Virus record (IMG/VR): IMGVR_UViG_2579779084_000015
Source: a virus
Lineage: Duplodnaviria > Heunggongvirae > Uroviricota > Caudoviricetes
DNA length: 2,994 nt
Strand: one strand, 5' to 3'
Within the stretch, counting starts at the first letter, position 1, and every line of letters begins with the position of its first letter. Below the pieces are notes generated by a model. That model saw only the letters and a program-made list of their open reading frames with translations, ran no database searches and had not been told where the DNA came from. The position numbers and the translations under genes are program-made. Below, one piece after another: positions 1,102 through 2,089 of this stretch.

Positions 1102-1689
1102 TCAGCGGGATAATTTTTGTTTTGTTTCGGTTGAACTCTGATCGCCCTCCGAATCGAAGAAGCCATCAAGAGAGAGAGGCGGAGCAATCTGCCCCGTAGC
1201 AGCATTAACTTGATTAAACATCACCCAATCCGAATACTTCCGAAAACGAGGGTGATTCAAAATCAGGAGTAACGTTTCTCCAGGTATCATTCTTCCCAAT
1301 ATTTCATAATTTTTGAGATTGTTTTGAGATACCCCTGTCACCTCTTCCATCGCTCTACGCGACAATCCCTCTGCCTCTCGAATCAGGCGGAGTTTTTCTC
1401 CAAGCTCAGATACCACTTCAGATCCATTACCAGCCAATGGCGTGGGTTCAATTTGCCCATTATCTGGAGACACTTGCCCAGTCATAAGCCAAAGTGCGTA
1501 TTTTTTGAACCTATCAATCTGTAAAACTCGCTCAACCAACTCTGCTCTAGCAGGCTGATGACCTGTTTCATATTTCTGAATAGTATTAAGTGGAATCCCT
1601 GTAATATCAGAGAATTGACGTCTGCTTAACTCTTCCGCCTCCCTCATTCTCATGAGCCTTTGCGAATAGTCTATTGACACGTTTCTCAT
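1102..1689 (-). CDS. Immunity repressor built from two tandem P2 C-like helix-turn-helix modules (single-chain pseudo-dimer)
   Basis: 195-aa ORF from ATG 1689..1687 (MRNVSIDYSQRLMRMREAEELSRRQF...), with the SD AAGGAG at 1707..1702 (12-nt spacing, somewhat long); stop TGA at 1104..1102. Residues about 1-95 and about 100-195 each align to the roughly 99-aa P2 C repressor as I recall it (LMRKSEYLSRQQLADLTGVP...FTKYTLWFMTNQIAPESGQIAP). Module 1: LMRMREAEELSRRQFSDITGIP...RFKKYALWLMTGQVSPDNGQIEP. Module 2: LRLIREAEGLSRRAMEEVTGVS...RFRKYSDWVMFNQVNAATGQIAP. It sits where C sits in P2, between int and a divergent cox. Confidence 0.8.
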   Translation of the reverse strand: MRNVSIDYSQRLMRMREAEELSRRQFSDITGIPLNTIQKYETGHQPARAELVERVLQIDRFKKYALWLMTGQVSPDNGQIEPTPLAGNGSEVVSELGEKLRLIREAEGLSRRAMEEVTGVSQNNLKNYEILGRMIPGETLLLILNHPRFRKYSDWVMFNQVNAATGQIAPPLSLDGFFDSEGDQSSTETKQKLSR

Positions 1690-1703
1690 GTGAGAAATAT
1701 ACT
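1674..1703 (+). promoter_or_regulatory. Candidate early promoter (Pe-like) directing rightward transcription toward cox: -35 TTGACA (1674-1679), 18-bp spacer, -10 TATACT (1698-1703)
   Basis: The -35 is a perfect consensus and the -10 matches TATAAT at 5 of 6, read directly from the sequence. The -35 lies inside the 5' end of the repressor coding sequence and the -10 overlaps the repressor SD on the opposite strand. This fits the face-to-face Pe/Pc arrangement known for P2 and 186. The predicted start site is near 1710. Confidence 0.5.
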
Positions 1704-1722
1704 CCTTTCTAAATTGAGAAAT
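1691..1722. promoter_or_regulatory. Candidate repressor operator: two 8-bp direct repeats TGAGAAAT (1691-1698 and 1715-1722), 24 bp centre-to-centre, flanking the -10 of the candidate Pe
   Basis: Two exact 8-bp direct repeats, seen in sequence. In P2 the C operator is a pair of 8-bp direct repeats flanking the Pe -10 at about two helical turns; this arrangement is analogous. Assigning them to the repressor is inference. Confidence 0.4.
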
Positions 1723-1740
1723 GCAAGAACAACTCAAATA

Positions 1741-1780
1741 GCCAAAATAAGCCTATATAAGCCATTTTTGGCCATTTGGA
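1741..1780. repeat. Four tandem 10-bp-phased repeats GCC-N7 (GCCAAAATAA GCCTATATAA GCCATTTTTG GCCATTTGGA); candidate Cox-box array and/or Pc region
   Basis: GCC recurs at exactly 10-bp intervals four times (1741, 1751, 1761, 1771), each followed by an A/T-rich heptamer, so the units sit on one face of the helix. P2 Cox is known to bind multiple directly repeated cox-boxes with helical periodicity in the Pe/Pc region. The array lies between the candidate Pe start site and the cox start codon. Confidence 0.4.
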
Positions 1781-1801: not shown

Positions 1802-2089
1802 ATGAGCGAATCAGAGCTTGAGGGGTTCATTCAGGTAGCACCATATCCACTTGAAGCGGTGCCATATCAACTATTTGCCAAGATGATTGGCCGCAAAGAA
1901 TCAACCGTCAGAACCATGATTGACGCCGCAAAGCTACCAACAATTGACTTTGTAAAACCGGGTTCAGCAAAGACGCGAGCATCAGAAAACTGGGTATATC
2001 TGCCAGCATTTAACGCAGGTATGCGCAAAGCATTTTTTGATCAGCCGAAAGAGCGCCGCGACGCATGGTTGCTCTGGCTGGGTCTTTGA
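1802..2089 (+). CDS. cox: Cox-like excisionase / directionality factor and switch regulator (P2 Cox family)
   Basis: 95-aa ORF starting at ATG 1802, with SD AAGGAG at 1787-1792 (9-nt spacing); stop TGA at 2087-2089. The sequence ...VPYQLFAKMIGRKESTVRTMIDAAKLPTIDFVKPGSAKTRASENWVYLPAFNAGMRKAFFDQPKERRDAWLLWLGL matches my recollection of P2 Cox (...IPYQEFAKLIG...MID.GKLPVID...WVYLPAWNNG...PKEIRDGWLMWLGL). It is divergent from the repressor, as in P2. Confidence 0.88.
   Translation: MSESELEGFIQVAPYPLEAVPYQLFAKMIGRKESTVRTMIDAAKLPTIDFVKPGSAKTRASENWVYLPAFNAGMRKAFFDQPKERRDAWLLWLGL

Follow-up and report, generated by a model that had tools for sequence, protein, structure and literature searches.

Sequence comparison identifies a two-module immunity repressor of a P2-like prophage as a fusion of two C-type repressors of different immunity types

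We analyzed a stretch of 2,994 nucleotides from a virus of the Caudoviricetes (IMG/VR record IMGVR_UViG_2579779084_000015; the whole stretch is called the window below), which forms the left end of a prophage of P2-like type (Xuanwuvirus/P88 group), and found in it an immunity repressor gene whose product carries two P2 C-type modules in one chain. By comparing each module with free-standing C proteins and the gene with its relatives in complete Escherichia coli genomes, we could show that it is a heterologous fusion, its two parts being P2 C-family repressors of different immunity type. P2 C itself is the textbook case of a small symmetric dimer reading direct repeats, and an immunity type is treated as one repressor together with one set of operators. 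For P2-like immunity seven classes have been described (PMC2995052). A tandem or fused C repressor is not mentioned in a 2011 survey of P2-like regulatory regions, and we found no description of one in the literature, a result that is provisional as most subscription journals lay outside the coverage.

The gene is read on the minus strand from an ATG at 1687-1689 to a TGA at 1102-1104 and encodes 195 amino acids (aa). A first-pass annotation made from the letters of the window had proposed that the gene codes for a P2-like prophage's immunity repressor and that two C-like modules lie in its single open reading frame (ORF), and both points hold: the genes stand in the order int, C and divergent cox, and an alignment of residues 1-95 to residues 96-195 gave 31 identities in 80 positions (39%, E = 2e-17). 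Searched separately both halves, and not only one of them, hit the P2 C/helix-turn-helix (HTH) family. Each half taken alone scored above the curated Pfam cut-offs for HTH_31 and HTH_3 and matched phrog_147, the 100-position profile of P2 C-type regulators (E = 1.9e-26 and 3.4e-22 for the two halves), which the complete protein hits twice in a profile match with E = 2e-50. The sole match in a sequence search of the PDB was P2 C (chain 2L49/2XCJ), found with module 1 at E = 3.2e-18 and with module 2 at E = 3.4e-13, and no 186 CI chain was among the matches. Both modules have the sequence and fold of the P2 C family, that is a five-helix HTH domain followed by the signature 'F-KY-LW-M ... GQI-P', which is present twice, from residues 61 and 149. 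The gene also has the family's position, with int and the repressor on the minus strand facing a divergent cox on the plus strand, a layout that is kept in relatives. On sequence evidence only, its operator has the family's form of two direct repeats at the early promoter. It departs from the family in size, having 195 aa and two modules in place of a single domain of ~100 aa. Databases name the protein generically as "helix-turn-helix domain-containing protein" and occasionally as "W-phi protein C", and NCBIfam holds no specific model for it and gave only generic HTH matches below threshold.

To describe the modules we use the immunity-type labels A, B and D, which were coined in this analysis; module 1 is of type A and module 2 of type B. 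Compared with the 39% between the modules, module 2 is 97% identical to a free-standing type B repressor and module 1 is 73–78% identical to free-standing type A repressors. The latter are 107-aa C proteins (P0027-P0031) that start with MRNVSIDYSKK, and one free-standing type A protein lies in the same cox-C-int-pdxB layout. The core of module 2 is also 96% identical to the C gene of the Citrobacter phage Shae_phiSM (WOZ57160.1), an isolated type B phage.

When the repressor region was searched against 5,426 complete E. coli genomes we obtained two full-length matches only, and ~70 genomes matched 56% of the query at ~96% identity in a stretch that is 264 base pairs (bp) shorter. One of these ~70, STEC316, has a 106-aa single-module C gene (WP_021580164.1), and its Int and Cox share their accessions with the Int and Cox of the two-module strain BCE049. 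Such accession identity holds for BCE049 and for strain H9Ecoli described below and not for the window, where int and cox show ~97% DNA identity. From an alignment of the window, BCE049, SC418, STEC316 and 266917_2 we could locate the joints: window positions 1102-1404 (module 2, tail and stop) are identical to the STEC316 C gene from codon 7 onwards at 292 of 303 positions (96.4%), the DNA homology then breaks sharply at 1404/1405 and at 1734/1735, and from 1735 to cox the window is again nearly identical to STEC316. The breakpoint at 1404/1405 coincides with the module boundary. Between the two breakpoints lies a 330-bp segment, here called the type A cassette, and the ~65 bp that it replaces in STEC316 are the operators of that prophage and the first six codons of its repressor gene. 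Within the cassette the linker TPLAGNGSEVVSE resembles, by eye, the first part of the disordered tail of single type A proteins, ALSLDGACNSEGDRVSTE, and it apparently is a truncated remnant of the disordered C-terminal tail of a type A repressor.

The first-pass annotation had explained the two modules by an old intragenic duplication, and here it has to be corrected. A tandem duplication of one C gene with later divergence to 39% would account for modules that are collinear and share the family skeleton, and the modules of two other proteins, P0032 and P0033, are 53% identical to each other; as the origin of the gene studied here it is nevertheless very improbable, since each module has much closer free-standing relatives, the homology to a prophage with the same int and cox breaks exactly at the module boundary, the linker looks like a truncated tail and not like a duplicated junction, and the same module 1 is found joined to two different second modules. 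Thus, because each module is far closer to a free-standing C protein than to its partner and because the breakpoint lies at the boundary, the 39% identity reflects the divergence of the immunity types before the fusion.

The other second module is present in a sister protein (P0024 cluster, WP_023277586.1) with the same module 1 and linker, whose module 2 is 92% identical to a free-standing type D repressor. In strain H9Ecoli this A+D gene is flanked by an Int and a Cox with the same accessions as in the D-type single-module strain 266917_2, whose C repressor is WP_001390705.1. A+B and A+D genes do not differ in the junction codon, and the linker is conserved between them. The int gene of the window is 99.8% identical to that of the D-type single-module prophage 266917_2 (L004) and 97.5–97.8% identical to those of BCE049 (A+B) and STEC316 (B), and because of this near identity to a D-type int the recombination directly downstream of the repressor must be recent. 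As the simplest history, the sequences suggest that the junction arose once in an ancestor and that module 2 and int were afterwards replaced repeatedly, by homologous exchange with single-module phages.

In the fusion itself a type A segment replaced the operators and the first six codons of the type B repressor gene in a Xuanwuvirus/P88-like prophage. The incoming segment brought type A operators and a type A repressor as far as a portion of its disordered tail, so that a linker of 13 residues was supplied ready-made. The simplest route would be one homologous crossover in the conserved cox-proximal region and one illegitimate crossover from the type A tail to codon 7 of type B. The junction would then have spread, and homologous recombination with single-module phages would later have swapped module 2 (and int), giving the A+B and A+D forms.

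The two-module gene is not confined to the window. The same gene of 588 bp (WP_001560989.1) is annotated by RefSeq in the complete E. coli genomes BCE049 and SC418, one of Chinese origin (cow) and the other from the USA (sediment). The type A cassette was found in 9 of the 5,426 complete genomes, two of them A+B and seven A+D, and in all nine it lies inside a two-module gene, as seen from the annotation for three strains and from full-length coverage for the rest; single-module prophages number ~70 of B-type and at least 276 of D-type in the complete genomes. Among contigs the exact protein occurs on 36, near-identical (96%) 195-aa variants on 416 and 193, and A+D proteins on 600 and 404, so that A+B and A+D together are present on well over 1,000 contigs; the five clusters of free-standing type A proteins have one contig each. 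The view of the first-pass annotation that neither an assembly artefact nor a frameshift has joined two genes is confirmed by this recurrence in independent complete genomes and on hundreds of contigs. An assembly or sequencing error merging two genes of ~100 aa is practically out of the question: the same 588-bp ORF comes from independent genomes of two countries and from contigs of several sources, there is no stop codon or promoter between the modules, and the differences between variants are mostly synonymous in both module cores.

More distant two-module C proteins were found as well. In a search of 1.84 billion representative proteins ~7 of the best 140 clusters (50% identity) carry two or three C-like modules, and the single-signature relatives have a median length of 105 aa. 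P0025 is an E+B' protein that joins a fourth type to a B-like module by a different linker, and P0032 and P0033 come from other P2-like early regions; all three lie between the divergent early operon and int. An alignment with MAFFT that mixed single- and two-module proteins misplaced P0032 and P0033 and was not used. The search of representative proteins also returned P0084 (at least 229 aa) with three C-like modules, and very long proteins with 7–9 matched HTH stretches (P0081, P0087 and P0096 with 2,787, 850 and 2,059 aa).

Judged from the substitution pattern both module cores are under purifying selection. Among the two-module genes the ratio of non-synonymous to synonymous substitution rates (dN/dS) is 0.07–0.15 for the core of module 1 and 0.05–0.11 for the core of module 2, with a synonymous rate (dS) of up to ~1.1, followed by 0.3–0.5 for the linker and ~1 or higher for the C-terminal tail. 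The HTH segment of module 1 shows no change in any type A protein, whether fused or single. The predicted recognition helix of module 2, QNNLKNYE, is the same as in the free-standing STEC316 protein and one residue off in Shae_phiSM (QYNLKNYE). The interface segments (helix 4-5) of the B and D modules in the fused proteins equal those of the respective free-standing forms, though both modules are joined to the same module 1. Separate translation of module 2 was considered and rejected, as the only in-frame methionine near its start, M114, lies inside helix 2. The tail (1105-1179) shows a pattern of its own between lineages, with many non-synonymous and almost no synonymous differences (dN/dS from ~1 to >5, at few sites); mosaic recombination, diversifying selection or a constraint by overlapping signals for int expression are possible causes. 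P2 C has a disordered tail too, the last 9 residues of which are not needed (PMC2995052).

In the control region, the 112-bp interval between repressor and cox, we found 22-nucleotide (nt) direct repeats that extend at one end into the repressor gene (1677-1698 and 1701-1722), each containing a 16-bp near-palindrome. These palindromes are the operators O1 and O2, which, like their pairing with the repressor, are predicted from the sequence. A candidate early promoter, Pe, points towards cox, and its function is inferred from the layout of P2 (PMC1904263). The promoter scan gave no convincing repressor promoter (Pc) on the minus strand, so that Pc is left without assignment. The operator arms are constant in type A single, A+B and A+D loci and only the 2-nt centres vary, and type B and type D phages have quite different operator repeats; in sequence terms module 1 is thus the match for the phage's own operators. 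The type B operator was represented by two 18-mers and also by the ATGTRAT core, the repeats being set by eye from STEC316 and Shae_phiSM, as the repeat finder gave no direct repeat there. With up to 4 mismatches allowed no such site was found in the window, and a 42-kb stretch with the complete BCE049 prophage contained one weak match (4 of 18 mismatched), which lies in host DNA outside the prophage. Module 2 is therefore without a cognate site in cis. A conserved inverted repeat with the 22-nt arms CAAATAGCCAAAATAAGCCTAT and ATAAGCCATTTTTGGCCATTTG, also present in STEC316 and kept across type A, B and D loci, is a candidate Cox-binding region or Pc site.

The P2 C fold consists of five helices and a short beta-like segment (PMC2995052), and in an AlphaFold2 monomer model each module folds in this way. 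The predicted local distance difference test (pLDDT) score is ~85–92 in the modules (~85–91 in module 2) and falls below 50 at residues 86-93 and 173-195. The linker is disordered, the predicted template modelling (pTM) score is 0.44 and no confident packing of the modules against each other is seen. Foldseek against the PDB gave 2xcj_A as best match (target TM-score 0.82, root-mean-square deviation 1.3 Å); no solved chain covered both modules and the query TM-score never exceeded 0.37.

We consider it probable that the two modules act as independent units on a flexible tether, because the operators are palindromic and unchanged, because B and D modules have been exchanged without adaptation in either partner and because of the disordered linker together with the pTM of 0.44. 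Module 1 would then be the cis-acting immunity repressor. Two chains would pair via their type A modules on each near-palindromic operator, and A:A dimers on O1 and O2 would bracket the -10 of Pe and keep cox and the early operon from being transcribed. Module 2 would be an intact, independently folding B-type unit for DNA binding and dimerisation on a flexible linker, which most likely pairs with module 2 of the partner chain and could bind the operators of incoming type B phages. It might thus be possible, and we put this forward tentatively, that the protein is a bispecific repressor that makes the lysogen immune to type A phages and also to the type B phages (type D phages for the sister form) that are rivals for the pdxB attachment site. 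Such a lysogen would be immune to two immunity groups, and the phage itself would answer only to a type A repressor. The likelihood that we give to dual immunity lies within that for independent modules and does not add to it. Self-association of module 2 may also stabilise or bridge operator-bound dimers.

Several points weigh against this interpretation. All that is said here of the function of two-module C proteins is inferred. The C-terminal third of the module forms the dimer interface in P2 C, and in just this part, residues 55-82 (1444-1525), module 1 differs from the free-standing type A proteins at 9–12 of 28 positions, compared with 6–9 of 54 in residues 1-54. At position 56, the equivalent of Leu53 in P2 C, every fused form has Leu and each of the five single forms has Ile, and the interface of module 1 could have been reshaped to suit a partner in its own chain. 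With 11 sequences the alignment given to AlphaFold2 had little depth, which makes the low pTM weak evidence. Part of the purifying-selection signal in module 2 may have come in from single-module phages by recombination, and module 2 is not monophyletic among the A+B genes: that of the window is 96.9% identical to free-standing B and 85–90% to other A+B genes. No close two-module C protein was found among 50,697 phage records.

The main rival, which also draws on the altered interface, is the covalent pseudo-dimer proposed by the first-pass annotation, in which modules 1 and 2 of one chain pack like the subunits of the P2 C dimer and one chain sits on each operator repeat, module 1 reading the repeat and module 2 making less specific contacts alongside. 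We regard it as unlikely. The first-pass annotation had added that the modules of such a chain could recognise different half-sites and that a distinct immunity specificity would result; our results speak rather against a hybrid operator specificity, each operator being a near-palindrome whose half-sites are of one type. Only one helix of the P2 C dimer is thought to read the repeat, and Ile5 at the N-terminus and residues 73-74 are both at the dimer interface of P2 C (PMC2995052), so that the connection of ~16 residues from the Gln76 equivalent of module 1 to the Ile5 equivalent of module 2 could plausibly bridge the subunits; the same source states, however, that the dimer interface is not conserved across the C family. 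A second module of B- or D-type with no change of operators is what would be expected if its specificity is irrelevant in cis. The interface helices of B and D differ, though, and each is as in its own free-standing protein, so that a single module 1 would need to suit both unadapted. The type A operators with their two equal half-sites, the arms of which are as in a single-module type A prophage, fit a symmetric A:A dimer better, and the model shows neither an ordered linker nor confident inter-module packing. In favor of paired modules it can be added that tandem C-like modules arose repeatedly (the ~7 of 140 clusters above) and that P0032 and P0033 have ordinary non-palindromic direct repeats upstream.

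We also think it quite improbable that module 2 is a passenger without a DNA target, either simply tolerated or acting as an extra self-association domain for the stability or cooperativity of the module 1 dimer. Here the conservation of module 2 would be only apparent and due to frequent re-import out of single-module phages, and this agrees with the mosaic nature of module 2 and int, which are often closest to single-module phages. Against it speaks an A+B gene from Citrobacter, which is 12–15% diverged in DNA from every other module 2 examined, the free-standing B ones included, and in which module 2 still has a dN/dS of 0.05–0.10 and an intact frame. That module 1 and its operators suffice for lysogeny and that the related BCE049 prophage yielded no type B operator would suit a passenger, as would the rarity of the fused form in complete genomes beside the B- and D-type single-module prophages. 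Set against this, the fused forms occur on far more contigs than free-standing type A genes, and two-module C proteins recur in unrelated P2-like lineages.

If both modules work, immunity would be stackable by recombination and a prophage could exclude a competitor without being sensitive to the competitor's repressor. Should the bispecific reading be true, this immunity would be asymmetric as well as stackable by module swapping, since only type A operators are kept and the phage would be insensitive to a B or D repressor. If on the other hand the modules pair within one chain, the protein would be a natural single-chain repressor and useful for learning how C proteins read asymmetric sites. 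Present on well over 1,000 contigs, it is in any case frequent enough to be of concern in prophage typing, and yet it is named only generically.

The closest known systems are the C protein of P2 (2XCJ/2L49) and the heteroimmune ones of W-phi and P2 Hy dis, which share fold and sequence family with each module and also the place of the gene, which opens the lysogenic operon, lies upstream of int and faces cox. Like the protein described here, P2-type C has no peptidase or RecA-cleavage domain and ends in a disordered tail; in contrast, it consists of one module of ~99–107 aa and not of two modules of different immunity types in one chain. In P2, too, two repeats bracket the -10 of the early promoter (PMC1904268). 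The P2 repeats are non-palindromic and 8 bp long, and direct repeats without a palindrome count as typical for P2-like C repressors (PMC2995052), whereas here each repeat is a 16-bp near-palindrome, and unlike in P2 one module has no cognate operator in a related complete prophage (BCE049). The free-standing B, D and A repressors of the Xuanwuvirus/P88-like pdxB prophages are the direct relatives of the modules (97%, 92% and 73–78%), being single-module proteins of 106–107 aa with their own operators directly upstream.

Two other repressor types were considered and rejected. With its 192 aa, the same role in a P2-like phage and an N-terminal five-helix HTH domain, 186 CI is alike at first sight, but it has a C-terminal beta-sheet oligomerisation domain, forms a heptamer of dimers and is partnered by the gene apl (PMC3448106). 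In the protein described here the C-terminal half is instead a second HTH module, the partner gene is cox and the only PDB match is P2 C. As for an SOS-cleavable repressor of the LexA/lambda CI type, no Peptidase_S24 domain was found in the proteins of the window (Pfam scan, E up to 1).

Joined DNA-binding units are otherwise known from engineered proteins. The single-chain 434 repressor and single-chain Arc are of this type, and engineered heterologous single-chain repressors recognise asymmetric operators. Engineered single-chain TetR likewise has the two DNA-binding units of a dimeric repressor on a flexible linker (PMC1557800). These laboratory designs are meant to fold as intramolecular dimers, in contrast to the natural fusion of two specificities found here, and are a functional analogy and not relatives.

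Natural tandem proteins of the XRE type also have repeated HTH modules in one chain and are often phage-associated, and Wmk of the Wolbachia prophage is reported to be one of them, with two HTH domains. In our search such multi-module hits were distant (25–33% identity), and tandem XRE-type proteins mostly lack the C-family signature and do not stand in the context of an immunity switch.

Table 1. Features of the window around the two-module repressor gene (positions are those of the window; a dot in the strand column marks features given without a strand).
Feature	Position	Strand	Basis and remarks
Two-module C-type immunity repressor gene	1102..1689	-	195 codons and stop; ORF translation
Module 1 core, codons 1-82, immunity type A	1444..1689	-	P2 C match; type A relatives; pLDDT ~85-92
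Module 1 predicted recognition helix LNTIQKYET, residues 34-42	1564-1590	-	
Linker, codons 83-95, TPLAGNGSEVVSE	1405..1443	-	likeness to type A tail by eye
Module 2 core, codons 96-170, immunity type B	1180..1404	-	DNA match to STEC316 C gene; P2 C match
Module 2 predicted recognition helix QNNLKNYE, residues 122-129	1303-1326	-	
Disordered C-terminal tail, codons 171-195	1105..1179	-	common to single-module C proteins of the phage group
Type A cassette, 330 bp	1405..1734	.	holds operators, module 1 and linker; replaces ~65 bp of single-module type B prophage
Predicted operator O1, TTTCTCA-TG-TGAGAAA	1682..1697	.	perfect palindrome with 7-bp arms; takes up the -35/-10 spacer of Pe; includes the start codon of the repressor
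Predicted operator O2, TTTCTAA-AT-TGAGAAA	1706..1721	.	near-palindrome; 24 bp away from O1, close to the -10 of Pe on its downstream side
Candidate early promoter Pe, TTGACA-N18-TATACT, towards cox	1674..1703	+	11/12 consensus; only match in 1000-1900
Conserved inverted repeat, 22-nt arms	1735..1778	.	same repeat in STEC316; kept across type A, B and D loci
Tyrosine integrase (int), 334 aa	1..1005	-	Pfam Int_N and Phage_integrase; annotation in BCE049; downstream of the repressor, lysogenic operon
cox, 95 aa, first gene of the early operon	1802..2089	+	Pfam Phage_Cox, E = 3.4e-23; Cox family annotation in relatives

On the plus strand cox is followed by a DUF4761 gene, a small ORF and a DUF4754 gene, and the Rfam search found nothing in the window. 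In related complete genomes the prophage adjoins pdxB. The BCE049 prophage has the full P2-like set of replication, head, tail and lysis genes, and from this gene content the carrier phage looks viable. It also encodes a protein annotated as 'derepression protein' (L015 5308-5538), a name used for the epsilon antirepressor of P4, and an antirepressor might bear on induction where the repressor of the phage has two modules. The same prophage further contains segregation genes of the ParM-like kind and a toxin-antitoxin pair, Doc/Phd. Two terminator-like hairpins lie antisense inside the repressor gene, at 1369-1392 and 1549-1567 on the plus strand; with 0.7 expected from shuffled sequences these two are probably due to chance.

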